Shown in pieces: positions 11,552-36,437 of a stretch of DNA of 44,022 nucleotides. Both the position numbers and the translations under genes were made by a program. Under the pieces are notes generated by a model. The model was given only the letters and a program-made list of their open reading frames with translations. It ran no database searches and was not told the DNA's origin. The DNA is taken from NCBI GenBank assembly GCA_002269645.1, contig NIVC01002396.1, positions 134,399 to 178,420 on the forward strand, in the 5' to 3' direction. Numbering within the stretch: the first letter of the stretch is position 1; every line of letters starts with the position of its first letter. This DNA is from Macrostomum lignano (lineage: Eukaryota).

Positions 11552-12157
11552 TTACCCTCGGCAGTTGCCACTGCTGCAGCCGCCGCCGCCGCCGCCGCCT
11601 CCGAAGCCTCCACTATAACCTCCACTATAGCCTCCACCACTGTAACCTCCACCACCTCCGTAGCCTCCACCACTGTAACCTCCACCACCTCCGTAGCCTC
11701 CACTGTAGCCGCCTCCGTAGCCGCTGCCGCCACCACCGCCGCCGCCGCCGCCGCCAAATCCAGTGTCGCACGGTTGGCATGGCGGGCAAGGCGGTGGACA
11801 AGGCGGCGGGCAGCGCAACGGTCTGCAATAGCTGATTCGGCAGCAGTCAGGCGTAGGACACAGATCCGGCAGGCGCCTGAACTCGCACGTATTGTCCGGA
11901 CAGGGCAGCGGCAACGGCGGAAAGCAGACAGGCGTTGGCGGCGGGCACAATTGAATCTGCGGCATGCAGCAGGGATCGCACGGCGGCCTCGGGATCCAGC
12001 AGGGCTGGCAGGGTGGCGGCGGGCATGGCGGCGGACAAGGCGGCGGGCAGGGTGGTGGGCAAGGCTGACAGCACGACGGCTCCTGGGCTGCATAGGGCGG
12101 ACAGAAGCCAGGCTCCGGGCACATCATCGGGCAGGGCGGCTGCGGCAGGCTGCACAT
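11552..12157 (-). CDS. Intronless 201-aa Cys/Pro-rich then Gly/Tyr/Ser-rich protein of unknown family (probably structural)
   Basis: ATG-initiated ORF with ~30 Cys, CPPPCPPPC runs and GGGYSGG repeats. AATAAA on the minus strand at 11461-11466, ~85 nt past the stop. No signal peptide evident. Confidence 0.7.
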   Translation of the reverse strand: MCSLPQPPCPMMCPEPGFCPPYAAQEPSCCQPCPPPCPPPCPPPCPPPPCQPCWIPRPPCDPCCMPQIQLCPPPTPVCFPPLPLPCPDNTCEFRRLPDLCPTPDCCRISYCRPLRCPPPCPPPCPPCQPCDTGFGGGGGGGGGGSGYGGGYSGGYGGGGGYSGGGYGGGGGYSGGGYSGGYSGGFGGGGGGGGCSSGNCRG

Positions 12158-12778
12158 GCTATTCGCGACTGATCAAACTGATAGGCCAATCGCTGACGAT
12201 TCTGATGCAGCCAATTGGTTCTTTTCTTCTTTGAAGCAACCTTTGTTTTCGCTATTTTCTGCCAGCCGACCTCTCACTACAAACAAGCACAATCTGTTAG
12301 CAGCCTTACACTTGCATGCCCGGAACAAAAGTAAAAAACGATTTTAAAGTTTTGAGTAGTCAACTTTTTGTACAGTCTCAGTTGTCAGCCAGCTTGGCCA
12401 TAGACTAAAATTGAAAGTACTTGAAAGCTTATTTGCTTTGTTTTACAGCAATTCAAGCTCGCTGATTATTTATCATAGACTTTTATAACTGCATACTATA
12501 AATTAAAATGAATAAACCCTAAAATTTATTGCATTTTGTAGTGCTTCAAAAAGCAAAACTGTAGATCCGGGTGCAGAATTCATAATTGCGTGATGGATTT
12601 CGGGGTAGCCAAAAGCCGAAAATTTGAGAAGTCTAATCACTTTCGATTTTACATGGGTTTTAATTTAATCATTATAGATACATTGTTTAATAAATCATTA
12701 TTTTAGTAAAATAGACTCTGACTGGGTATGCTTAGCCTGAGCATTTTTGTGGAGGATGCTTGAAACTCAACATAATCT

Positions 12779-17701: not shown

Positions 17702-18283
17702 ATCTTCCGAAGCTTTATTAACCGCGATAATTTTGATGCCTTTCTGTATTTCAGTTTTTAATTCTAGCTACTTATGCCATTGCACTCCCTCAGGTGATAG
17801 CAGGAGGTGGGCGGCCAGTACTTCCAGTGTACAAAAGAGCGAATAACTCTCGGCATGTTGCTATATAAATGGCTCATGCCCACACACAAAATCCGTACAA
17901 AACTGCTTAAAGGAATGCTAAGCGTCATTCGGAGCAGTGGTTCTTTATCTAAATTTCAAGCACTGAAAGCTTCGCCAAAAAGCTAGCGATATCGAGTGTA
18001 TATAGCCAGAGTATTCTTAAGATAATCTTCTTCAATTTGCCTGACGTGATACGCAGATAGCTAAGTACGAGCTGTCACTACCGACTAATGGAGAATGTTC
18101 TGAGATCGACTAGAGTTGTGGATCTAGTAGATCTCTTGGGGGGGGGGATTATACTCATAAGAAAATTGCTCAGATTGAAAAGTTTTATATGCAGGGTCGT
18201 CGCCATGGGTTGTATGTTAAGGGGGGAGAAAGCCAAGAATTCTACATGTACATGTTCATGTTTTTCGCCCTTTCTTGCGCTGA

Positions 18284-18746
18284 AGGCACTCATTTTAGCG
18301 CCATAGGCACTATTTTTAGTGCCACAGGCACTCATTTTAGCGCCATAGGCACTCATTTTAGCGTCACAGGCACTCATTTTAGCGTCACAGGCACTCATTT
18401 TAGCGCCACAGGCACTCATTTTAGCGCCACAGGAACTCAGTTTAGCGCCACAGGCACTCATTTAGCGCAATAGGAACTCATTTTAGCGCCACAGGCACTC
18501 ATTTAGCGCAATAGGAACTCAGTTTAGCGCCACAGGCACTCATTTAGCGCAATAGGAACTCAGTTTAGCGCCACAGGCACTCATTTAGCGCAATAGGAAC
18601 TCATTTTAGCGCCACAGGCACTCATTTTAGCGCCGCAGGCACTCATTTTAGCGCCACAGGAACTCATTTTAGCGCCACAGGAACTCATTTTAGCGCCACA
18701 GGAACTCATTTTAGCGCAACAGGAACTCAGTTTAGCGCAACAGGAA
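18284..18746. repeat. 21-bp satellite, left arm
   Basis: Unit ttttagcgccacaggcactca with g(c/a)actca variants. Confidence 0.96.
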
Positions 18747-18763
18747 GCGGCCCTTTGATGTCG

Positions 18764-18781
18764 ATCCCACCGCTGCCACCA
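18764..18781 (-). promoter_or_regulatory. Primer-binding site (tRNA-Leu) of the LTR retrotransposon
   Basis: Minus strand reads TGGTGGCAGCGGTGGGAT one nt after the LTR end. It is complementary to ATCCCACCGCTGCCACCA, the 3' end plus CCA of animal tRNA-Leu(AAG/TAG) as I recall it. Confidence 0.85.
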
Positions 18782-18782
18782 G

Positions 18783-18982
18783 TGTAAGACCGTGGGTTGA
18801 ATTGCAGTGACGAACACAACACGTGAGGAGACCTCACTGGCTCACGCCAATATATTTAATATACCAAAGTTGGGGTGGGTGTAACCACCCCAAGCACGCA
18901 CACGCTGCAGCTCTAAACGCCATCCCCCAAAACAGCCAGACGTGCACATCTAAGTGCACGCGCACCAACAAGCCAGCCTACA
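18783..18982 (-). mobile_element. 200-bp LTR of the Gypsy element
   Basis: TGTA...TACA termini. Polypurine tract tagggggaaagtag (18983-18996, minus) immediately upstream. ATTAAA at 18855-18860 on the minus strand. Confidence 0.88.
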
Positions 18983-19018
18983 CTACTTTCCCCCTAGAAA
19001 CAAAAGACAGTTCCAGAG

Positions 19019-21577
19019 TCAAGCAAAGCCCGCCATGTACAAGTCAGGTGGCCGCCGCTCTCTCGCCGACCGCCGCGGAACCATTACCGGCTCAGCCGGT
19101 GCCGCCGGCTGCTCCTCGGGTGCCTCGTCTGCCTGCAGCTCGGGCCAGAAGGTCACCGTGTCGCCGTCAGGATCGGCCGCCTGCCCGGGCGGCTCAGCGG
19201 CGGTGCCGTCGTTGTCGGAGTCCGCGGCCGGCGGCTGGTGGTCTGCCGCGGCCGGAAGCTCCAGTGACGCCCGTCGCTGCACGAAGCGCTTGAGGCGGTC
19301 GTGGTGCACCACCAGCCGGCGCCTGCGGCCGGTCTCGTCCTGGATGCGGTAATTGACCTCGCCCAGGCGCCTCAGGACTCGGTACGGCCCCTTCCACTTG
19401 GCGCTCAGGCACCGCGTCTGGCCGCGCTTGACGACGGAGTTGCGCAGCATCACGAGCTGGCCCTCTTCGAACGGCACGAACCGAGAGTCCTGGTTGGCCA
19501 GCCGGTTGCGCTCGACCTGGGCGCTCCGCAGTCGGCCGTGCACCGTGTCGAAAGCGCTCTGCAGGTTCTCCTGAGTCCGCTGCAGGAAGCCGTGATGTCC
19601 ACCGTCGGCTGCCGGCCGGTCGCCGCTTATCAGCCAGCTGTCGAGATCCAGCCTCGGTGGCCAGCCGTGGAGGACCTGGTACGGACTGAGGCCGGTGGTG
19701 CTGTGCACGGAGGTGTTGTAGGCCCAGGTCACATACGGCAGCTTGCTGTCCCAATCCTGCTGGTTCTCGGCCACCGTCGTCGCCAGCATATCGCTGAGCG
19801 TCCGGTTGCCTCGCTCGACGATTCCGTTGCCACTCGGATGAAACGGCGACGTGCGCGTCTTTTCAACGCCCAGCTGCTCGCAGAGCCGGCCGAACACCTC
19901 GCTCTCGAATTGCCGTCCCTGGTCACTGTGCAGCACCTGAGGAGCGCCGTGACGCAGAACCACTTACTTGAGCAGTGCATCTGCCACCGTCACCGCGTCG
20001 ATCGCCGCCAGGGCTGCCGTCTCCATCCACTTGGAAAAGGCGTCGCACATGCTCAGGATGTACGCCTTGCCATCAGTCGTACGCGGAAGCGGCCCTTTGA
20101 TGTCGATCTGCACCAGCTGCCACGGAGCCGTCGGCTGGCACGTCGACTGTAGCGGCGCCTTCTGCGGCTTGGTTGGACACTTCTTGGCCAGGCAGACCGC
20201 GCAGCTGGCCACCCAGTTCTCGACGTCCCGTCGCAGACCAGGCCACCAGCAGCGCTCAGACAATCTCGCTCCGGTCCTGTCGACGCCGAGGTGTCCGCTC
20301 TGGTCGCACGAGTGCGCCTGCTGCAGGAAATGCGGCCGCAGGTGACCGGGAATGACTGGCCGGCCACCCACCAGCAGGACACCCGCCGAGCTCACCGAGG
20401 CCTCGTCCAGCAGCTCGCGAACCTGCGCCGCCCACGAATCGGACAGGCTGTCAATCCCTTCGGTCAGTGCCTGGAACGCCTTGCTCAGCAGCGGGTCTTG
20501 CAGTTGCTCCTCGTGCAGGCGGCTGTCGTCCCACCGAGGCTGCAGGCGCGTGCCGGCCACCCGGCTCAGCGCATCCGGCACGACGTTGTCCCTGCCAGGC
20601 CGGTACAGCAGCTCGAACGAAAACTGCTGCAGCGTAGAAAGCCATCGCGCCAGCCGACCTTCGGGGTCCTTCGTTGTCAGCAGACCTTGCAGTGGCCGGT
20701 GGTCCGAGTAGACTCTGAAGCTCGGGACACTCAGCAGGTACGTCCTGAAGTGCTTCAGACTCCAGACCAGCGCCAGCAGCTCGCGGTCGGTCGCCGAGTA
20801 GTTGCGCTCGGCCTTGTTGAGGGTGCGAGAGGCGAACGCCACAGGCAGCTCGGCGTCACCGTGCAGCTGGCTGAGCACCGCGCCGACGGCGAACTGACTG
20901 CTGTCGCAGCTGAGCACGAACTGCTTGGTAAAATCCGGCAGCCTCAGCACCGGAGCCGTCGTCAGCCGGTCCTTCAACTCGCGGAACGCTCGCTCGCAGT
21001 CGCTGCTCCACGCGAAGTCCCTCGATTTCACGTTGACGTCGTGCAGGACCCTCGCCGTCTGGCTGAAGCCTGGGATGAACCGACGGTAGAACCCCAGCAT
21101 TCCAAGAAACCGCTTCACCTCCTCGGTCGTCGTTGGGCTGGGCATGCTGCGAATGGCATCGACCTTGCCGGGATCCGGGGCAATGCCCTGCTCGCTGATC
21201 AGGTGTCCCAGGTACAGCACCCGGCGATGGCCGAACGCGCACTTGGCCTTGTGCAGCTTGAGTCCCGCGTCTCGCAACCGCTTAAAAACTTCCGCCAGCC
21301 TCTCTAAGTGCTCGTCGAACGTCCTGCTGAAGACAATGATGTCGTCGATATAAGTCAGCACGGACTCCCAGGACAGGCCGGACATCACCAGCTCCATGAG
21401 CCGCTGGAACGTCGCCGGGGCATTGCACATCCCGAAGCCCATCTTGCAGAATTGCATCAGGCCGCGCGTCGAATAGAAAGCCGTCTTGTACCGGTCCTCC
21501 TCCGCCACCTCCACCTGGTGGTAGCCCTGCCGGCAGTCGATGGTGGAGAACCAGGAGCATCCGACAAGCGCATCCAT
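19019..21577 (-). pseudogene. Gypsy pol remnant with an in-frame premature TAA in the integrase core
   Basis: RT (FSTIDCRQGYHQV, MGFGMCNAPATFQRLM, YIDDII), RNaseH (CDSSQFAVGAVL, ERNYSATDRELLA, SDHRPL), integrase HHCC (AHSCDQSGHLG...CAVC) and DDE (IDIKGP, HSDQG, NGIVER), GPY (KWKGPYRV). ORFs 19964-21577 and 19019-19963 share one frame, split by AAG TAA GTG at 19964-19966. Confidence 0.93.
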
Positions 21578-21597
21578 GGCCTGCTGCAGGTTTTATT

Positions 21598-22580
21598 TTA
21601 CTCATTTTAGCGCAACAGGAACTCATTTTAGTGCCACAGGAACTCATTTTAGCGCCGCAGGCACTCATTTTAGCGCCACAGGAACTCATTTTAGCGCCAC
21701 AGGCACTCATCTTAGCGCCACAGGAACTCATTTTAGCGCCACAGGAACTCATTTTAGCGCCGCAGGCACTCATTTTAGCGCCACAGGCACTCATTTTAGC
21801 GCCACAGGCACTCATTTTAGCGCCACAGGCACTCATTTTAGCGCCACAGGAACTCATTTTAGCGCAACAGGAACTCAGTTTAGCGCAACAGGAACTCATT
21901 TTAGCGCAACAGGAACTCAGTTTAGCGCAACAGGAACTCATTTTAGCGCCAGAGGAACTCATTTTAGCGCAACAGGCACTCATTTTAGCGCCACAGGAAC
22001 TCATTTTAGCGCAACAGGCACTCATTTTAGCGCCACAGGAACTCAGTTTAGCGCAATAGGAACTCATTTTGGCGCCGCAGGCACTCATTTTAGCGCCTCA
22101 GACACTATTTTTAAGCGCTGCGGGCACTCATTTTAGCGCCGCGGGCACTCATTTTAGCGCCACAGGCACTCATTTTAGCGCCACAGGAACTCATTTTAGC
22201 GCAACAGGAACTCAGTTTAGCGCCGGAGGCACTCATTTAGCGCAATAGGAACTCATTTTGGCGCCGCAGGCACTCATTTTAGCGCCACAGGCACTATTTT
22301 TAGCGCGGCGGGCACTCATTTTAGCGCTGCGGGCACTCATTTTAGCGCCACAGGCACTCATTTTAGCGCCACAGGAACTCATTTTAGCGCAACAGGAACT
22401 CAGTTTAGCGCCGGAGGCACTCATTTAGCGCAATAGAACTCATTTTGGCGCCGCAGGCACTCATTTTAGCGCCTCAGACACTATTTTTAAGCGCTGCGGG
22501 CACTCATTTTAGCGCCGCGGGCACTCATTTTAGCGCCACAGGCACTCATTTTAGCGCCACAGGCACTCATTTTAGCGCCG
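21598..22580. repeat. 21-bp satellite, right arm (same unit and orientation as 18284-18746)
   Basis: Unit ttttagcgccacagg(c/a)actca. Confidence 0.96.
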
Positions 22581-24149
22581 CAAGGGCTATATTTTGTCGC
22601 CCTGAAAAAAAATTATTGATTTCCATAACGGGCCACAAGGTTGGGTGGGGAGACAAAGCATTGGCTTGCCCCCCATAGCTTTTACTGTGGGACATGCCCC
22701 CCTGTCCCCCCTGCTTGAAAGTATTTTTAAATAGATTAAAAGTTTCAATGCTACTAACCATAATATTAAAATACAATTAACATCAAATTTTTAATTTATT
22801 AATCGTTAAGCGTTATTAAGCATTCCAGCAAAGCTTCATTGCTCAAGCATGAATAAATATTTCCACGAGGGCTGTGTGGGAACCCATGGCGCAACGTCTT
22901 TCTTCAGCGACATCGTCCCACATCGTGCGCTGGGATAATTCTGCCCACAAGCGAGCTCACTGCCCACGAGTTCACTCCTGGGAACACAAGCGAGCCAATA
23001 CTGTAATCTAAAAGGATGAATTATCATGCATACTGATATAAAGGAAATATTTTCCATAATAGGGCCTAAAAAATGGGATTTTTAGACTGAGAGATGAACA
23101 TTTTCCTAATTTGTTGTCATAACTATTTACGGGGTCTACTGTATATAACAAAATTTAAAATACTAAGTTGCAATAAAGCAGCAAAATAATTTTTTAATTA
23201 AGATTGACAAAAATAATAATGTTCTAAATTAAAAACTTTGCAATAACAGCAAAGCGTATTTTTTACTTAAAATTTAGTATGCATACGTTAAAACTTGCAT
23301 GGGGGCCGGGGGGGTCTGCTGCGCGCGGCCCGCGCATGGTACTGGTGAACATGGCTGCTAGATCAGTTTGACATTGACATATAATGCTCTAACACAGGTA
23401 TAGAAATACTAATAGGGTTTAAATTGAAATCAATCCAATACCATAAAAACAAAAATCACAAAGGTACAGACGATCGTTTAAATTGCTAAATTTTCTGTCT
23501 CAATAGGAAATTTACCCTTTGGCCGAATAGCCGATGCTGATGCCTTATTAACTTATTATTGAGACCCTATGTATATGTTGGCGTCGGCGATGCCTATAAA
23601 TATAATTCCTATTACTGCATTACTATCAGCATGACTGGAGCTATGTCTCGCTGTCCATGTGGAGATAATTGGGCCTAATAAAAATGGCAGAATTAAGTTC
23701 TAAAGTTCCATGTCTTTATTATTATTATTAAGTTAAAAAATACTTGACCTTGAGTTGTTTAAAGCAATTGTGAATTCGCTTAAAGCTTTAGAATCTGTGA
23801 TTGGCTTTAACAGCATCAAATTCTAGGCCTAACCTAAGTATGCCTAACCTTGCATGAATTTTTTCTTTAAAAATTGTAGGCCTATACAATAAAATCCAAA
23901 TCTCTTTAAAGTTTGTGTTAAAAGCAAAAGGATTTAGGCCTAATTCTTATCTAAGTAAGGATGCTTTGCTCAATATGAGGCACCCTGAGTTGTAAATTTG
24001 TTGTTACTAAGATGCTACTAGAACTAGAGGTGATAGCTTTATAACATTTAGGCCATTCATTCATTCATGTGTCATGCAGACAATAAGAGTCCAATTTAGT
24101 AATAGCCTAAATCTTCCTAGAGGCATTTTTAGAGACTTTTAAAAAAAGT

Positions 24150-26450
24150 TAGAAGACTTTAGAGACTTCTTCCTAGAGACTTTCTAGAGGCATTGAAGTG
24201 CTCTAGACCAGCTAGAGTGGGGCTGTCTAGTTGTAGGTTGTATGAAAGTCTAATATTGCTATTCTGCTCAGTAACAAGGTTTTGGAAATGTTTCACAAAG
24301 TTTTCGTCAATTGCTGCATTGTTATTAGGATGGTTATGCAGTTTCAGTAAGCGCCAAAGCTGTCTTGTATCATTTTGGATGCAAGCCTGGTTGATCATGT
24401 TTTTTGCACACAGGATTGATTCATGTTTCCAAGAAATCAGGTTTTTTGTATGTTTTTTAAGCTGTATTTTGTATGCAAGGTTGCTTCTTATGGGGAAAAT
24501 CTTGTCTTCTGCTGGCATGCCTAGCGGCATTTCTTAGCGTCATAGTATTTTGAAGATGTTGGTGGTATGTAAGAGTTAATAACAGTGAAATTTTTGCTTT
24601 TGTCCTTTTTGTTTTTAAAGTTTAATGTCAAAAAATTGTTGTAGTTTTTGAATGACTCAGTCACATTGAAATGTGTTTCTAGGGATTTTTTATAAGCAGT
24701 CAGTAGGCTACCAGATGCCCTACCAATAAAACTGCTTCCTTTTTTGTTTGCAGACTTTTGGAATATTGTGTAATTGTCATTGAGTTTGCTTATTCTGAGA
24801 AGCCTATCATTACTTTTTGTATCAATTATCCAAGTTCTTGAATGCAGATAATATTGTGCTTAAAAGTTGGTTCAGCTTCTAACAATTCAAGTTTGGGAAT
24901 CATCACTGAGTCTTTTACAGTATAGAGTCCTGTAATATTCCAGCTGCTAATGTTGAAATTTTGTTTAATCTTTTTATAATTAAGTTCAGAGAGTTTTGAT
25001 TTAATATTTTGATATATTTTTATTTTCCTTTGAGTGATACTAGTCTTAATTGAGATAAGGTAATCTCTAGTGTACTGTATCCGCTTCTTCTTATTCCTAT
25101 TAGCATCAGTAGATTTATTGATATAACTACGAGGGGTGTTGCAAAAGTTTCCTGATTTCCTGTAGGCCAATTTCTCAATGCAATGATAACAAGGGAATTT
25201 CTGGATAATATTCTAAAACGATTGGTCAAAAACAGTAAAGGAACACATTATTATGTTTTATTAGTGTTGAGCGGAACAAAAAGCAAAAAAAAGCAAAAAG
25301 CATTGTTGTCATCTGTGCTAGAACGCGGACAGCCAGAGCAAGCAGCATCAGCGACGCTTGTGTGGCCATCAGCAGCAAGTCGGTGGTGGGCAAACACTTG
25401 TGTGCAACCCAACGCATGATCACCAAAAGCAGTGCAAACTTTGTTAAAAGTCTGCATTGGTGTCTTACCCATGTGCTGACATGCCATAATGAAGTGACAT
25501 TGACTTTCTTTCGAACCAAAATCTGAGTGGTTTTTTGGTCGGCTCATTCTTCGAGTGAAATTGTGTGAAATAACATAGACCCTCAGGCTTAACTTGGCTC
25601 TAATGTAGGCTGTGTTTGTCCTAGTCATGCAAAATTTTAGCCTGGCACTTATTAATAACCAAATAGTTTATGGATGAAAGCTCATCCAAATCTGATAAGA
25701 ATTGTGCTTTAGCAAACACTAGTCCGGAAACTTTTGCAACACCTCTCGTAGAATCAAAAAGGTCAAAAGATGATAAAGTTCAAAAAGTTTTGATAAAGGG
25801 GACTCCCTTCTTATAGGCAATATGGATGTTATTCTCACCATCTTCTTTCAATTTTTTCAGCTCTTTAATGACCTTCTGCTTGTACGCTCGTTCCTTCTCC
25901 ATTAGGTCATTCTCTATTCTGACTCTTTGGTAAGCAGAGCCAGCTTCCTGCAGGTTTTTTAGGTTGCCAAAGAAAGCTGCTTTATCGCTCTCATTTACAA
26001 GGTGAACAACCAGGGGCCTTGGCCAGTTGCTAAATGGTTGTTCATGGCCAATTCGTTTGGTGGCAATGATTGGCACTGTTGATGGGGTGATCTTCAGTCC
26101 ATCTCGCAGCAGGTTCTCAAAATCCTCCGTTTCTTGCAGTCTAAAAATTATTATATTATTTTTTTTCACATTTCGCTGATTCACTTCTTCCACAATCTCA
26201 TCAAAGCTTATATTGTACATTATTGTTTGCTTGCCATTTTTGATCGACTCGAGCTCGGCAATGCATTCTTCCAGGACTTCCAGTTTAGCATTGACATCTT
26301 TTAATTGCTCTATGTTGTTGATGAGCGCATGCACATGTACCTTACAGTCGCGACAGGTCAAGATGAGCCCATTGTCGCAAGGGCCATTAGCAATCGCATG
26401 TCAATGTCAATTGCCATTCTCAGGTCAAGATCTGGTTTCTAAAATAGTTG
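24150..26450 (-). mobile_element. Decayed non-LTR retrotransposon (CR1/L2-group-like): ORF1 with PHD-like and RRM-like motifs, partial ORF2 endonuclease and linker
   Basis: ORF1 25780-26361 and just upstream: PCDNGLILTCRDCKVHVHA, NNIIIFRLQE, KRIG, RPLVV, VRIENDL. ORF2 pieces: SSWNITGL...IICIQE(T)W (frameshift at ~24835), GRASGSLL, VINSYIPP, then NDTRQLWRLLK (24159-24530). No RT domain found. Clade assignment is by motif recall. Confidence 0.8.
25130..25748 (-). mobile_element. Internally deleted mariner (Tc1/mariner) element, 619 bp, inserted into the LINE
   Basis: 26-bp TIRs cgaggggtgttgcaaaagtttcctga (25130-25155) and reverse complement of 25723-25748 (2 mismatches), both flanked by TA. 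Transposase N-terminal HTH remnant from ATG 25547 (GKTPMQTFNKVCTAFGDHALGCTQVF...GHTSVADAACSGCPRSS). Confidence 0.92.
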
Positions 26451-29349: not shown

Positions 29350-31859
29350 ATGTCTCTATGGAGTTATTTTCAAGCATCCGGTGCTGGCGGTGCCGGCGGC
29401 GAAGCCCCTAGCGGCGCTGATACAGTTGAAAAACTCTGCCACCGGCTAGAGTCCTCCACACTTATTGACGACAGACGCGACGCTTTGCGAGCTATAAAAT
29501 CTTTGTCGAAGAAATTCCGGTTAGAAGTTGGCACCCAGGCTATGCGGCTGCTGTGCGACGTGCTGGAGAAGGACCGCAGCGATCCAGACCTCTGCAGCTA
29601 CTCGCTGGAGTCCCTGCTCAATATTGTTAGCTGTGATCCTCAGGTGTGCGACTGCTGAGGCCCTGGGATAGGGGTTGCTCAGTGCTCACTGAAGCACTGG
29701 GATAGGGGTTGCTCAGTGCTCACTGAAGCACTGGGATAGGGGTTGCTCAGTGCTCACTGAAGCACTGGGATAGGGGTTGCTCAGTGCTCACTGAAGCACT
29801 GGGATAGGTGTTGCTCAGTGCTCACTGAAGCACTGGGATAGGTGTTGCTCAGTGCTCACTGAAGCACTGGGATAGGGGCTGCTCAGTGCTCACTGAAGCA
29901 CTGGGATAGGGGTTGCTCAGTGCTCACTGAAGCACTGGGATAGGGGTTGCTCAGTGCTCACTGAAGCACTGGGATAGGGGTTGCTCAGTGCTCACTGAAG
30001 CACTGGGATAGGGGCTGCTCAGTGCTCACTGAAGCACTGGAATAGGGGTTGCTCAGTGCTCACTGAAGCACTGGGATAGGTGTTGCTCAGTGCTCACTGA
30101 AGCACTGGGATAGGTGTTGCTCAGTGCTCACTGAAGCACTGGGATAGGGGCTGCTCAGTGCTCACTGAAGCACTGGGATAGGGGTTGCTCAGTGCTCACT
30201 GAAGCACTGGGATAGGGGTTGCTCAGTGCTCACTAAAGGATCGGTGAGGGAGATTGTATTACTTACAGTAGTGTTATTAAGAAAGTCGTGCATTTTCGGC
30301 TACTTCAGGAAGAAGCGGAGCCTGGCCAAGCTGAGCTGTGCAGCCAGTTCGCCGAGATATTTGTCAAACAGTCTGCCAACGTGCACCTGGTGCTGGAGTG
30401 CATCGACGAGACCGACAGTCGAGTCCGGGTGCCGGCCCTTCGCGCCCTGGCCGCCCTGCTGGAGTCCCAGACCAAGGCCACTCAGGAGCACATACTCACT
30501 TTTCCGCAGGGCTGCGGCCGGCTGATTGACGTGCTCACCGATCAGCGCGAGTACGTGAGAAACCTCGGCATCCTGCTGCTGGTGCACCTGACCAGGACCA
30601 ACACTAACATACAGAAGATTATCGTGTTCGAGGACGCTTTTCCTCGCCTGTTGGAGATTATCTCGGCGGAGGGCTGCTCTCACGGCGGAGTTGTTGTTGA
30701 GGACTGCTTGCGCATCCTGCTGAACTTGCTGCGATCTAATCCGCCCAACCAGACCCTGTTTAGGGAGAATTCCTACATTGCCCAGCTGCCCGTGTTCTTT
30801 GAGGATGCCGACTCTGGCGACGAGGGCGGCGCCGGTGGCAGCGATGCTGAAGGCTGGTATGTCTGTGCGTGTCTGCAGGGGATGTGTGCACCCTGGCGCA
30901 CTTTAAACGACATTGTCGCGCAACCGGCGAAAGGCGCATTACTGCCCATTCCGCCGACCCCTGACTTTCTAATTGTTAGGCCTGTACACTCACTGTGTTT
31001 TGGGGGGGGGGGTTGGCCCTCAAGGCCGTTAATTGCACAAGTAAAGCCAAGCCGGGATTTCAATATCAGCCACAAGTTAATGCGACCGCAAGAACGTCGC
31101 GCCAGACCACTAGGCTACGGCCTCCCTCAGCTGCCGTATCCTTATTACGGAACAAAAGTCCTGCTGTAACTCTATTAACACGTTGCCATACAATCGCCGC
31201 AGGTCAACCCAACGCGTAACCAACGTGCTCCAAATGCTGTCAGTAATTCGAGTCCTGGTGTCGCCTCAGAATGCCAGCCAGAACACGCGAGCCTCTCAGC
31301 GGGCCATCCTGCAGTGCGGCCTGTTGGCCCGCCTCACCGCGATCCTCATGGCTAGCGGCGTGCCCGCCGAGGTGCTGGCCGAGACCATCAACACCGTCGC
31401 CGAGTGCATTCGCGGCTACGAGGAGGCGCAGAAGTTTCTAGCAGCAGTTGAAGCGCCCGCTAATCCGCCTCGGCCGGCCATCGTTGTGCTGCTTATATCT
31501 ATGGTAATCTTTCTTGTGTTGCTTCTGAGCCTTCTTATTCTTCCCTGCGTCAGCCCATTACCGTCTGTGTCTGTCTGCCTGTCTGTCTGTCTGTCTGCCT
31601 GCCTGTCTGTCTGTCTGTCTTTCTGTCTGTCTATGTCTGCCTGCCTGTCTGCCAGTCTGTCTGTCTGTCTGTCTGTCTGTCTGCCTGTCTGTCTGCCTGT
31701 CTGTCTGTCTGTCTGTCTGTCTTTCTGTCTGTCTATGTCTGCCAGTCTGTCTGTCTGTCTGTCTGTCTGTCTGCCTGCCTGTCTGTCTGCCTGCCTGTCT
31801 GTCTGCCTGTCTGTCTGTCTGTCTGTCTGTCTGTCTTTCTGTCTGTCTATGTCTGCCAC

Positions 31860-31904
<45 letters not shown>

Positions 31905-31960
31905 GTCTACCTGGCTATTTCTGTCTGTCTATGTCTGTCTGTCTTTCTGTCTGGCTGTCC

Positions 31961-32006
<46 letters not shown>

Positions 32007-35000
32007 GAATCCGGCTGAATGATGTACATCATCTTCTCTGTCCCTCTGTGTCTGTCTGGCTCTCCGAGCATCAGTAGTCACTGTATCTGATCTTGAGCAA
32101 TACTCCATTCACCAAAAAAAGTTTTCTATATACACCTAAGCCTGCATTGCGAATCCTAGTTCTCTACTTACAGTAGCATTCCAAGCCTATTATTCTATTA
32201 TAGGAGTATTATTATCAAGCGCCCAGATTGAAATAAATTAGCTTACACAATTCTAACAAATCCAGGTGAACGAAAAGCAGCCGTTCCCCTGCGCCTAGCC
32301 GTGCTGTACGCATTCCAGTCCTATCTGTTCCGCAATCCCGACGGTCAAGCGGCTGTGGTCAGCACCCTGCTGCCGGCGTCGGCCGAAGCTACCAGCAGCA
32401 TCACTGCTGGCCAGTTGCTCTGCGCCGGCCTGTTCTCTAGCGACTCGCACACGGCCTGGCTGGCCGCTGTCTCCCTGCTGCACGCCGTTCACGGCAACTC
32501 TGTCCAGAAGGAGCAGCTGCTCCGCGTGCAACTGGCCACCGGGCTGGGCTCGCCGCCTGTCAGCCTGCTGCAGCACTGCGCCAATCTGCTCACTACTAAT
32601 CCCAGTGCTAGGTGAGGGCTGGCAGTCTGATGACCCTTCTAGATCCCCATATTGTCAGCTGATATCTTTCCAGTTCCTCTAATTGAGATGCCATACTCCT
32701 AGATCTTCAGTTGCTATGTCACCGCCACACTGCCAGATCCCCAGTTGCTAGGTCACCGCTACCCTGCCAGATCCCCAGTTGCTAGGGGCCGCTACCCTGC
32801 CAGATCCCCAGTTGCTGTCCAGAAGGAGCAGCTGCTCCGCGTGCAACTGGCCACCGGGCTGGGCTCGCCGCCTGTCAGCCTGCTGCAGCACTGCGCCAAT
32901 CTGCTCACTACTAATCCCAGTGCTAGGTGAGGGCTGGCAGTCTGATGACCCTTCTAGATCCCCATATTGTCAGCTGATATCTTTCCAGTTCCTCTAATTG
33001 AGATGCCATACTCCTAGATCTTCAGTTGCTATGTCACCGCCACACTGCCAGATCCCCAGTTGCTAGGTCACCGCTACCCTGCCAGATCCCCAGTTGCTAG
33101 GGGCCGCTACCCTGCCAGATCCCCAGTTGCTAGGTCACCGCTACCCTGCCAGATCCCCAGTTGCTAGGTCACCGCTACCCTGCCAGATCCCCAGTTGCTA
33201 GGTCACCGCTACCCTGCCAGATCCCCAGTTGCTAGGTCACCGCTTCCCTGCCAGATCCCCAGTTGCTAGGTCACCGCTACCCTGCCAGATCCCCAGTTGC
33301 TAGGTCACCGCTACCCTGCCAGATCCCCAGTTGCTAGGTCACCGCTACCCTGCCAGATCCCCAGTTGCTAGGTCACCGCTACCCTGCCAGATCCCCAGTT
33401 GCTAGGGCGCCGCTACCCTGCCAGCTCCCCAGTTGCTAGGTCACCGCTACCCTGCCAGATCCCCAGTTGCTAGGTCACCGCTACCCTGCCAGATCCCCAG
33501 TTGCTAGGCGCCGCTACCCTGCCAGATCCCCAGTTGCTAGGTCACCGCTACCCTGCCAGATCCCCAGTTGCTAGGTCACCGCTACCCTGCCAGATCCCCA
33601 GTTGCTAGGTCACCGCTACCCTGCCAGATCCCCAGTTGCTAGGTCACCGCTACCCTGCCAGATCCCCAGTTGCTAGGTCACCGCTACCCTGCCAGATCCC
33701 CAGTTGCTAGGGCGCCGCTACCCTGCCAGCTCCCCAGTTGCTAGGTCACCGCTACCCTGCCAGATCCCCAGTTGCTAGGTCACCGCTACCCTGCCAGATC
33801 CCCAGTTGCTAGGTCACCGCTACCCTGCCAGATCCCCAGTTGCTAGGTCACCGCTACCCTGCCAGATCCCCAGTTGCTAGGTCACCGCTACCCTGCCAGA
33901 TCCCCAGTTGCTAGGTCACCGCTACCCTGCCAGATCCCCAGTTGCTAGGGCGCCGCTACCCTGCCAGCTCCCAGTTGCTAGGACGCCGCTACCCTGCCAG
34001 ATCCTCAGTCGCAGTGCCACACAGCTCTTTGCAATCGCAACATTGTCCACTCTCCAGATGCAAGCTGGGCCTACTTCAACTACTGGGCGGCTGGCTCACC
34101 CAGTGCCCCCTAGTAACCAAGGCGTTTCTCAATTGCGCCAGCAACGTCAACCAAGCCCTAGCCGAGCTGCAGGGCTCCGACCACACAGAAGAGGAAGGCC
34201 TAGTGAAGGCGCTCTACGCTTACCTATTAGGCGCGTGCTTTCTGGCCGGGCACACGGACCTCATGGCCCTGGTTGAGAGACGTGTCGGAGCCGAGCCGTT
34301 TCTCGAGTGTCTGGGCAAATTGTCCAAGTCTGAGGTGAGTGCGCGCTATGTCCCCAGTGCTGTCATACTATTTCCCCAATACTGTCATACTATCTCCCCA
34401 ATGCTGTCACACCATCTACCCAGTGCTGTCACACCATCTCCCCAGTGCTGTCACACCATCTCCCCAGTGCTGTCACACCATCTCCCCAGTGCTGTCACAC
34501 CATCTCCCCAGTGCTGTCACACCATCTCCCCAGTGCTGTCACACCATCTCCCCAGTTCTGTCACACCATCTACCCAGTGCTGTCACACCATCTCCCCAGT
34601 ACTGTCACACCATATCCCCAGTACTGTCACACAATCTCAGTAGAATATCTCACACCACAGCTTCTCCTACTGGGCTGTCACACTAGGCTATCGCCCCCAT
34701 ACTCAGCAGTTCCCAGCCCCCCCCCCAGTCTGCAGCAAGCCAGGCCAGCCGCTCCAACCACCTCCCCTTCACAGGTGTTTGTGAAGTCACTGAAGTCGCC
34801 GCAGCCGCCCTCGCAGCCCAGCCTGGACTACGAGTTTAGCCGGATGTTCAAATCGGCCGAGCCCGAAATTGCCAGGGCTCTGGGCGCAACGGGCGGCTCT
34901 GGTGGGTCCGGGACAGGCGGACTCGCACAGCAGTTCACCGAGCACGAAGCCGTCGTCACCCAGTACAAAGACCTCATCAAGGAGCAAGACTCCCGCTATA

Positions 35001-36437
35001 GGGAATTAAAAACTCGATTCGACGCCTTGCAAGCCGGCAGCGAACAGTTGACGAGAGAGAAGGCCAGCTTGGAAGAGACTGTACGCAGCCTGCGCGATCA
35101 GAACACCGTGTTGAAGGCGGCGGCGTCTGGCCGCTCCGGCCTGGCCCCGGCTGTCGCCTCCGTCGCCGCCTCGGCGTCAACCGCCAGCTCGTCAATGCCG
35201 TCCGGCTTGGACCAAGTTGGCCAACAGACGTCAGACTCTTCATCATCGCTGGTGCAGCAGCTGCGGGATCAGCTGGCAGCTAGGGAGACTGAGCTATCTC
35301 ACCTGCGGGCCGAGCTGGACACTGTGAGAAAGTCATCGCCTTCTCCGGCCGCCGCAGGCTCCTCGGGTGGCTCCGTTGTCGAAGCCGCAACCGCCTATTT
35401 TCCCGACGACTACGATCAGGTATGCAGTATTGATTGGGGCATTGTGTACTTTGTGAGCCGGTCTTCAGCTAATGTTATCCTTTTTATCTCTTGCATGAGC
35501 CTTCCCACCACTAGACCTAAACAGCCTCAACCTAGACCTGAGTCACTCCATCATCCTAGACCTGAGTCACTCCATCATCCTAGACCTGAGTCACTTCATC
35601 ATCCTAGACCTGAGTCACTCCATCATCCTAGACCTGAGTCACTCCATCATCCTAGACCTGAGTCACTTCATCATCCTAGACCTGAGTCACTCCATCATCC
35701 TAGACCTGAGTCACTCCATCATCCTAGACCTGAGTCACTCCATCATCCTAGACCTGAGTCACTCCATCATCCTAGACCTGAGTCACTCCATCATCCTAGA
35801 CCTGAGTCACTCCATCATCCTAGACCTGAGTCACTCCATCATCCTAGACCAGAGTCACTCCATCATCCTAGACCTGAGTCACTCCATCATCCTAGACCTG
35901 AGTCACTCCATCATCCTAGACCTGAGTCACTCCATCATCCTAGACCTGAGTCACTCCATCATCCTAGATCTGAGTCACTTCATGAAGCATGTCACCTGAA
36001 GCATGTCACGGCAGACCTGAATCACGCCTCGCCCAGGTGAAGCTGGAGAACGCCAATACCGGGAGCGCATCGCGGAGCTGGAAGAGCAGGTAGCTGAGGT
36101 GGCCAAGCTGTCGGCTCTACGCGACAGCCTTCAGCGGCGCATTGACGAGCTGCTGGTGATCGAGGCCGAGCGGGACCAGCTCCGAAGCGAGCTGGCACAA
36201 CAGCAGCAGCCGGAGGATACTCAGGAGCTCAAGCAGCAGCTAGATGAGCTCACTAGCGAGCGCGACAATCTCAAATCTGAGAACGAAGACCTCTTAGTGT
36301 TGCTTAGCGACCAAGACTCCAAGCTGGAGGCTCTCCGTGAACAGGTGAAAAGTCTGGGCGGCAAAGTTGACGAAGAGGACGACGAGCCCGTCGATCTTGA
36401 AGAGGGCAGCGATGGTGCAGAGTACGAGGATAATTGA
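29350..36437 (+). CDS. USO1: General vesicular transport factor p115
   Basis: Exons 29350-29643 (SGADTVEKLCHRLESSTLIDDRRDALRAIKSLSKKFRLEVG), 30309-30856, 31203-31503 (WSTQRVTN...PRPAIVVLLISM), 32266-32611 (VNEKQPF.LRLAVLYAFQ), 34058-34334, 34775-35419 (LDYEFSRMFK, coiled coil), 36037-36437 (ENEDLLVLLSDQDSKL, acidic tail). All GT-AG with consistent phases except two -1 shifts (~32286-32289, ~36052-36054). AATAAA at 36510-36515. Confidence 0.93.
29662..30237. repeat. 34-bp intronic minisatellite with palindromic core
   Basis: Unit gggataggggttgctcagtgctcactgaagcact in USO1 intron 1. Confidence 0.96.
31562..32006. repeat. Imperfect (CTGT)n microsatellite
   Basis: Inside USO1 intron 31504-32265. 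Confidence 0.96.
32500..33129 (+). repeat. 315-bp tandem duplication spanning the 3' part of USO1 exon 4, its donor and the intron start
   Basis: 32500-32814 is repeated at 32815-33129 (ctgtccagaaggagcag...gctaggtgagggctggcag...). Confidence 0.93.
32690..34005. repeat. 34-bp intronic minisatellite
   Basis: Unit ccccagttgctaggtcaccgctaccctgccagat. Continuous from ~33020; first units at 32690-32814. Confidence 0.95.
34350..34636. repeat. 22-bp intronic minisatellite
   Basis: Unit cccagtgctgtcacaccatctc in USO1 intron 34335-34774. Confidence 0.94.
35530..35975. repeat. 24-bp intronic minisatellite
   Basis: Unit cctagacctgagtcactccatcat in USO1 intron 35420-36036. Confidence 0.96.

Follow-up and report, generated by a model that had tools for sequence, protein, structure and literature searches.

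The 44,022-nucleotide stretch of Macrostomum lignano DNA analysed here (GenBank assembly GCA_002269645.1, contig NIVC01002396.1, positions 134,399 to 178,420 of the forward strand; hereafter the window, whose first letter is position 1) contains a Ty3/Gypsy retrotransposon fragment embedded in a 21-bp minisatellite. This Gypsy fragment is not an integrase-made provirus, nor a circle with one long terminal repeat (1-LTR circle), nor a completed product of misdirected strand transfer. The explanation that we favour, and consider likely, is that a Gypsy reverse-transcription intermediate stalled, primed wrongly on its own sequence, gained about 21 nt and was caught at a break by end joining.

On the minus strand, the order of the parts is minisatellite, 8-nt filler, truncated region of reverse transcriptase (RT), RNase H (RH) and integrase (IN), polypurine tract (PPT), 200-bp LTR, 1 nt, 18-nt primer-binding site (PBS), 24-nt patch and again minisatellite. 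The 5'-truncated Ty3/Gypsy pol (19019..21591, minus strand), consisting of partial RT, RNase H and integrase, is interrupted by an in-frame stop at 19964-19966, and its Pfam matches on the minus strand are, in sequence, RVT_1, RT_RNaseH, Integrase_H2C2, rve (below cut-off) and Integrase_p58_C. On the same strand, the PPT (18983..18995) adjoins the single LTR (18783..18982, 200 bp, TGTAGG...CTTACA), and a 1-nt spacer (18782) lies between the LTR and the PBS. The pol order RT-RH-IN and the TG...CA LTR with its adjoining PPT and transfer RNA (tRNA) PBS are those of Ty3/Gypsy elements. The minus-strand layout reported by the initial annotation, which was made from the letters of the window, was borne out, since LTR, PPT, 1-nt spacer, 18-nt PBS and patch were all located. 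Self-BLAST revealed no second LTR or further element pieces in the window, and no target-site duplication of 4-6 bp is present (the register shift is 0-1 nt), in agreement with the earlier statement that both the duplication and a 5' LTR are missing. A single LTR followed by a PBS, with no such duplication, is not what integrase leaves behind; the order PPT-LTR-PBS is present, as in a 1-LTR circle or a shared-LTR tandem. The inserted product is inert, having one LTR, no gag or protease and a truncated RT.

The limits of the element and of its PBS were fixed with contigs of the family from public runs. Part of the stretch is contained in 20 of the 24 public runs listed, and at least half of its words in 18, all from one organism. 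The contigs of four of these runs (X1, X4, X8 and X15) were compared with the window over 30 bins. All 30 bins are covered in each of the four runs, which indicates a multi-copy family. At 21591 the contigs of all four carry on as RT; therefore the truncation point is fixed at this position, instead of at 21598 as originally annotated, and 21592-21599 is filler. At 18769 contigs diverge from the window in three of the four runs (four contigs in X15, one in X4 and one in X1), those of X4 and X1 with at least 255 further letters each. This result indicates that the family PBS consists of 13 nt (18769..18781, minus strand) followed by its own leader, and that the 24-mer of the patch is not its normal continuation, a point on which the initial annotation had made its reading depend. 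Among the contigs listed, every one exiting at the PBS end has the 13-nt PBS. The 18-nt tRNA-Leu PBS first described is thus a match in this copy, while that of the family is 13 nt long; tRNA-Leu PBSs of only 8-9 nt are described in cestode elements (PMC4558846). With respect to the long family contigs, this copy differs at 16 of 1,350 letters (X1) and at 20 of 1,763 (X4). These differences have no strand bias (A>G at 7-11 vs. T>C at 11-12 places per run), and therefore give no sign of single-strand deamination.

The 18 letters of this copy's PBS (18764..18781, minus strand) are the complement of positions 59-76, the 3' end, of tRNA-Leu(AAG/TAG). Letter for letter they are tRF-3001a, the 3' 18 nt of that tRNA (PMC10591036), in a mammalian reference that may not be the host's. 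In a longer tRNA-Leu fragment, given in the appendix of PMC12025293, the preceding base is A. This next base, position 58 by our own count, is mismatched in the window, and up to there the match is 18 out of 18. In retroviruses, plus-strand synthesis halts after 18 nt of tRNA, at 1-methyladenosine 58 (m1A58; PMC8599865). Here, 18764-18768 match the tRNA, are absent from the genomic PBS and end one base before A58, which is what is expected of a plus-strand strong stop. Five bases past the family PBS thus agree with the primer. Three of them also occur in the donor of the patch; the other two (18767..18768, minus strand) are present in the tRNA and absent from both the family PBS flank and the integrase donor, with no other source found. 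By hand arithmetic, five extra matching bases would occur by chance about once in 1,000, and the two strict ones once in 16. Judged by its letters, the 18-nt tRNA tail reads as the signature of plus-strand strong-stop DNA. When IMG/VR, a phage and prokaryote set, was searched for tRNAs that have the last 10 of the genomic bases in common, 16 matches were obtained, six of which were called tRNA (three Tyr, three Met and no Leu); two of these six had the window's five bases, two Met matches being on one contig, and these are phage or prokaryote sequences and not host tRNA.

This tail bears directly on the source of the DNA. The initial annotation had proposed a 1-LTR circle or a head-to-tail tandem, a source that is not supported: either would bring a 13-nt PBS and leader, vs. 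the 18 nt of tRNA-Leu observed. In fact, a circle or tandem of normal copies cannot supply 18767-18768, two bases foreign to the family PBS and to the donor alike. The proposal could be retained if a minor subfamily had a genomic 18-nt PBS and if its 1-LTR circle or tandem, broken just past the PBS, had been caught with the addition of a patch by polymerase theta. This copy could belong to such a subfamily, given its differences from the main contigs; 1-LTR circles are abundant products of alternative end joining (alt-EJ) in Drosophila (bioRxiv 10.1101/2022.09.25.509424), and the length of the patch lies inside the 3-30 bp range of theta inserts (PMC7165422). We nevertheless hold this subfamily origin to be very unlikely, since every listed contig exiting at the PBS end has 13 nt, nothing would make a circle open precisely at tRNA position 59, a circle that had closed at the cryptic site described below would be without the 1.5 kb of RT-RH upstream, and theta templates are local (PMC7165422).

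The 24-nt patch (18743..18766, minus strand) is a direct copy of the integrase interior, directly before the core domain (20085..20108, minus strand). The identity stated in the initial annotation covers exactly 24 nt, with no extension on either side, and none of the patch's 10-mers recurs at another place in the window, whichever strand is read. The chance of this identity, using the 17 nt unshared with PBS or satellite, is ~5,600 x 4^-17 = 3e-7 (hand arithmetic). The overlaps of the patch, GGAA with the minisatellite unit and ATC with the PBS, are also as first described, except that ATC is only the tip of a longer gapped match, which self-BLAST placed between 18743-18779 and 20085-20123 (39 columns, 92%, two 1-base gaps). 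Because this match goes beyond the 24 nt, a PBS-like stretch precedes the donor in the element sense. This cryptic PBS-like site (20106..20123, minus strand) lies in the codons for PWQLVQID, a motif also found in the protein P0001, and is the best acceptor in the element for the 18-nt tail. In fact, among all 24-nt windows of 18783-21591 on both strands, the donor forms the most stable duplex with the tail (-16.9 kcal/mol), the runners-up having -15.0 kcal/mol among template-strand sites and -16.6 among those of the opposite strand. Considering only the 27 template-strand sites that pair with the last three bases, the donor is again the best, and leads the next (-12.5) by 4.3 kcal/mol; in an anchored alignment it scores 10, with scores of at most 7 elsewhere (2,787 positions per strand). 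With the 13-nt PBS alone, the donor merely ties for first (-14.5 kcal/mol), so that the tRNA-derived tail adds specificity and 3' pairing. The copy is direct and not inverted, its donor being 1,342 bp away, and direct orientation is what a minus-strand template is expected to give.

Here the PBS leads, with orientation unchanged, into the internal site that pairs with it best, as in a product of aberrant second-strand transfer. The completed form of this event (LTR-junction-3' interior-LTR) is not what was found, as the minisatellite begins where the 24 nt end. Mis-transfer carried through to full extension was rejected, because the geometry of its product would be LTR-PBS-IN-PPT-LTR and not RT-RH-IN-PPT-LTR-PBS. 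An autointegration circle was rejected as well, because it joins the LTR end, and not the PBS, to the interior (PMC7197481). The fragment might also derive from two generations of events, in which aberrant second-strand transfer yields a normally integrated mini-element (LTR-PBS18-3' integrase-PPT-LTR) and later deletions trim both ends into the minisatellite; before the trimming, either the mini-element and a full copy form a tandem that shares an LTR, or a resident genomic copy is invaded by the PBS tail. Such a history accounts equally well for the tRNA bases and the cryptic-site junction. HIV makes defective proviruses of this kind (PMC12657518), Tf1 forms shared-LTR tandems (PMC11042837), and 24 nt alone cannot separate a donor in trans from one in cis. 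It requires, however, two more deletions ending in the same array with the register kept to 1 nt, and we regard it as highly improbable; moreover, no PBS-to-integrase joint is listed in the four runs, although rare forms could drop out, so that this absence is evidence neither way.

The initial annotation had connected short templated patches with microhomology to end joining by polymerase theta. Theta inserts measure 3-30 bp, with local templates and tracts rarely longer than 10 bp (PMC7165422). Both the 24-nt patch, with its 3- and 4-nt overlaps, and the 8-nt filler, with 1-nt overlaps, are within this range; the patch, which is GC-rich, longer and copied from a distant donor, fits the theta description more poorly. 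A theta patch at a chance microhomology of 3 nt is therefore doubtful, given that the donor is the top PBS-like site, 1.3 kb off, and that theta tracts are local, and it is the filler that better suits this polymerase.

The break in the minisatellite appears clean. The left arm of the minisatellite (18284..18744/18746, plus strand; in-register end ...CAGGA(A)) ends at a unit boundary plus one A, and the right arm (21600..22579, plus strand), which starts with ACTC in register with the left, begins at that A. Joined directly, the 42 letters preceding the insert and the 21 letters following it recur intact at 21852. This unbroken register indicates that no bases, or else only whole units, were lost at the break and that any duplication is of 1 nt at most. 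Since neither end is at the LTR CA and a 4-6 bp duplication is missing, the integrase-independent capture at an array break put forward initially is supported; what had been called a satellite is a 21-bp minisatellite totalling about 1.4 kb. Microhomology had been annotated at the junctions. The left one is indeed made through GGAA (18743..18746), common to the minisatellite unit and the patch end, while the right one holds an 8-nt AT filler (21592..21599, plus strand) and not plain microhomology. The pentamer TTTTA stands here twice in tandem (21591-21600); it is also part of the satellite unit and may have served as template. The filler fits the short, AT-rich, locally templated inserts of theta (PMC7165422), and untemplated addition is also possible.

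The array itself lies between GCAGGG (18191-18196) and CCCTGC (22709-22714), two short inverted ends that also enclose G-rich and C-rich runs, and may lie within a dispersed element resembling a miniature inverted-repeat transposable element. In the last bin, which contains the unit, summed contig depth is ~45-235 times that of the Gypsy interior, a value that is not a copy number.

An artificial junction, in which extrachromosomal cDNA or separate repeats were joined into the array during assembly or library preparation, deserves consideration, given that both junctions are unconfirmed in the listed contigs, that the largest share of the stretch's sampled words in any public run is 0.73, and that the insert sits within a highly repeated unit. 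Assemblers, however, join at shared sequence, and would presumably not create the tRNA bases, a patch from the best site or the AT filler. The register is continuous across the array, and the private substitutions and the stop codon suggest residence in a genome. Hence the probability that we assign to a chimera is very low.

The stalled and mis-primed intermediate would have arisen as follows. Minus-strand cDNA would have been made from the tRNA through LTR, PPT, IN and RH into RT, ending at the truncation point located at 21591, either because synthesis stalled or because the end was later trimmed. Primed at the PPT, the plus strand would then have run through the LTR and on into the tRNA-Leu primer for 18 nt, overshooting the 13-nt PBS by 5 nt and halting before A58, presumably at m1A as in retroviruses. 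The stalled intermediate would have a free, single-stranded 3' end on each side, that of the minus strand in RT and that of the plus strand in the tRNA copy. With the true PBS acceptor absent, or unable to prime a mismatched 3' end, the tail may have hybridised with the cryptic PBS, exposed where integrase was still single-stranded, with its last three bases pairing, and been extended by about 21 nt. The donor would be in cis, and the enzyme somewhat more probably RT than host polymerase theta. The extended end would have been released and have paired, through GGAA, with one end of the cleanly broken minisatellite, presumably in the germline. Finally, the minus-strand 3' end would have been joined to the other side via the 8-nt slippage filler, host repair filling the gaps.

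In another version, which we judge unlikely, though less so than the alternatives weighed above, a family with a 13-nt PBS would routinely make an 18-nt strong stop, whose 5-nt unpaired 3' tail needs trimming and priming by host end joining before it can be extended at the true PBS, and the fossil would record one continuous job of polymerase theta: second-strand transfer tried at the cryptic PBS, aborted, and the end re-annealed into a chromosome break. Such a role would agree with the proposal that alt-EJ (polymerase theta) carries out second-strand transfer of HMS-Beagle in Drosophila (bioRxiv 10.1101/2022.09.25.509424). If this version were true, genomes would hold readable PBS18 scars mapping the in-vivo strong-stop ends and the host role, for any short-PBS family.

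Several observations weigh against the stalled-intermediate explanation. The evidence is a single event. Among those listed for the four runs, no contig crosses either junction, and X8 has no entry at 18769 among its listed rows. At 6 of the 40 variant positions listed, the window's letter is carried by no contig of the four runs; this copy is therefore probably unrepresented in the contigs, and its junctions are uncheckable there. As rare variants are dropped in contig assembly, it could conceal a minor subfamily whose genomic PBS has 18 nt. The mammalian tRNA-Leu taken as reference may differ from that of the host. As for the pairing, the opposite-strand site is within 0.3 kcal/mol of the donor, and the energy model leaves the donor's last three pairs frayed or marginal. 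The authentic 13-bp PBS duplex is stronger (-19.8 kcal/mol), so that mis-priming requires the true acceptor to be missing or unusable.

The individual steps are known from experiments with yeast or HIV, and here they appear to be preserved together in an animal genome sequence. One close parallel is the capture of Ty1 cDNA intermediates at double-strand breaks of S. cerevisiae, where 40 of 56 3' LTR inserts have cDNA-only bases (PMC11372161). The two cases are alike in being integrase-free, in favouring the 3' LTR region, in the cDNA-only bases and in junction microhomology. They differ in that Ty1 was captured at experimental yeast breaks needing Lig4 and Pol4 (PMC11372161), whereas here a natural 2.8-kb copy stands in an animal assembly; the internal self-priming that we propose is not encountered in the accessible text of PMC11372161. 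In Tf1, single-stranded PBS tails steer integrase-independent insertion with truncation (PMC11042837). With Tf1 and integrase-dead HIV-1 our fragment shares a plus-strand PBS tail acting as a free 3' end that seeks PBS-like sequence, a truncated far end and the lack of a target-site duplication (PMC11042837). In those systems Rad52 annealing pairs the tail with a resident element or with PBS-like host DNA (PMC11042837), whereas here the tail would first have primed at a PBS-like site in the integrase gene of its own element, and a new 4-nt end serves for the host junction. Likewise, in defective HIV-1 proviruses, bases of tRNA origin follow the genomic PBS and lead, without a change of orientation, into an internal site further downstream (PMC12657518). 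The aberrant HIV-1 transfer reads through A58 (7-54 nt insert) and is recovered as internally deleted proviruses (PMC12657518); here the copy stops at position 59, was apparently aborted after about 21 nt and left the order PPT-LTR-PBS, and the overshoot arises because the family PBS is only 13 nt. Alt-EJ of Drosophila HMS-Beagle is similar in the priming from annealed PBS homology and in the handling of cDNA by host end joining. There, correct PBS-to-PBS closure gives 1-LTR circles (bioRxiv 10.1101/2022.09.25.509424), and here closure would have been at the wrong site, with no circle. No report of the combined structure in an animal genome was found in the literature searched, which excludes most subscription papers and supplements.

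The fragment would thus provide, from sequence only, a readout of an in-vivo reverse-transcription intermediate in an unstudied animal Gypsy family, namely the plus-strand stop on the tRNA and the fate of an over-long tail. It suggests that cDNA capture at breaks, experimental in yeasts, leaves lasting copies in animal genomes. The rule for finding others would be an LTR followed by a PBS exceeding that of the family, and then by internal sequence or host DNA, without a target-site duplication; such copies are liable to be misfiled as circles, tandems or truncations. What the window holds is a dead single event and no new functional system.

With regard to the relatives of the family, the nearest named pol proteins are Macrostomum lignano Ty3/Gypsy P0004, P0008 and P0013 (54-64% identity over the whole query), and two unnamed JGI proteins, P0001 and P0002, have 85% and 66% identity over the whole query. 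All five have the same domain order and none is near-identical to the family. A metagenome scan gave 16 loci with 28-47% identity in the best segment, none belonging to the family. In the LTR region 18806-19001, summed contig depth in the four runs is ~2-10 times that of the interior, with many small indels, which hints at solo LTRs or LTR variants. At 21221-21423 in RT, 201 bases are missing from a single contig of X8 and from a single contig of X4 (one side measuring only 21 letters), possibly an internally deleted family copy.

The rest of the window (1-44022) contains many unrelated, near-homogeneous minisatellites of 20-51 bp period between exon-like open reading frames (ORFs) of SMC, MFS and RPL26 genes, the domains of which were found, and no Rfam family at gathering scores. 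A 206-aa ORF at 11552-12172 (minus strand), Cys/Pro-rich and then Gly-rich, has no Pfam match and looks like a structural protein. Another 206-aa ORF, in AT-rich DNA at 25780-26400 (minus strand), has no Pfam match either; we take it to resemble a remnant of ORF1 of a long interspersed nuclear element. At 32500-33131, a perfect 315-bp tandem duplication covers coding-like sequence and part of a 34-bp minisatellite, and is either a recent exon duplication or an assembly artefact. The exon-like ORFs at 30237-36040 (plus strand), one piece of which was scanned and had no Pfam match, have the look of a USO1/p115 vesicle-tethering protein.

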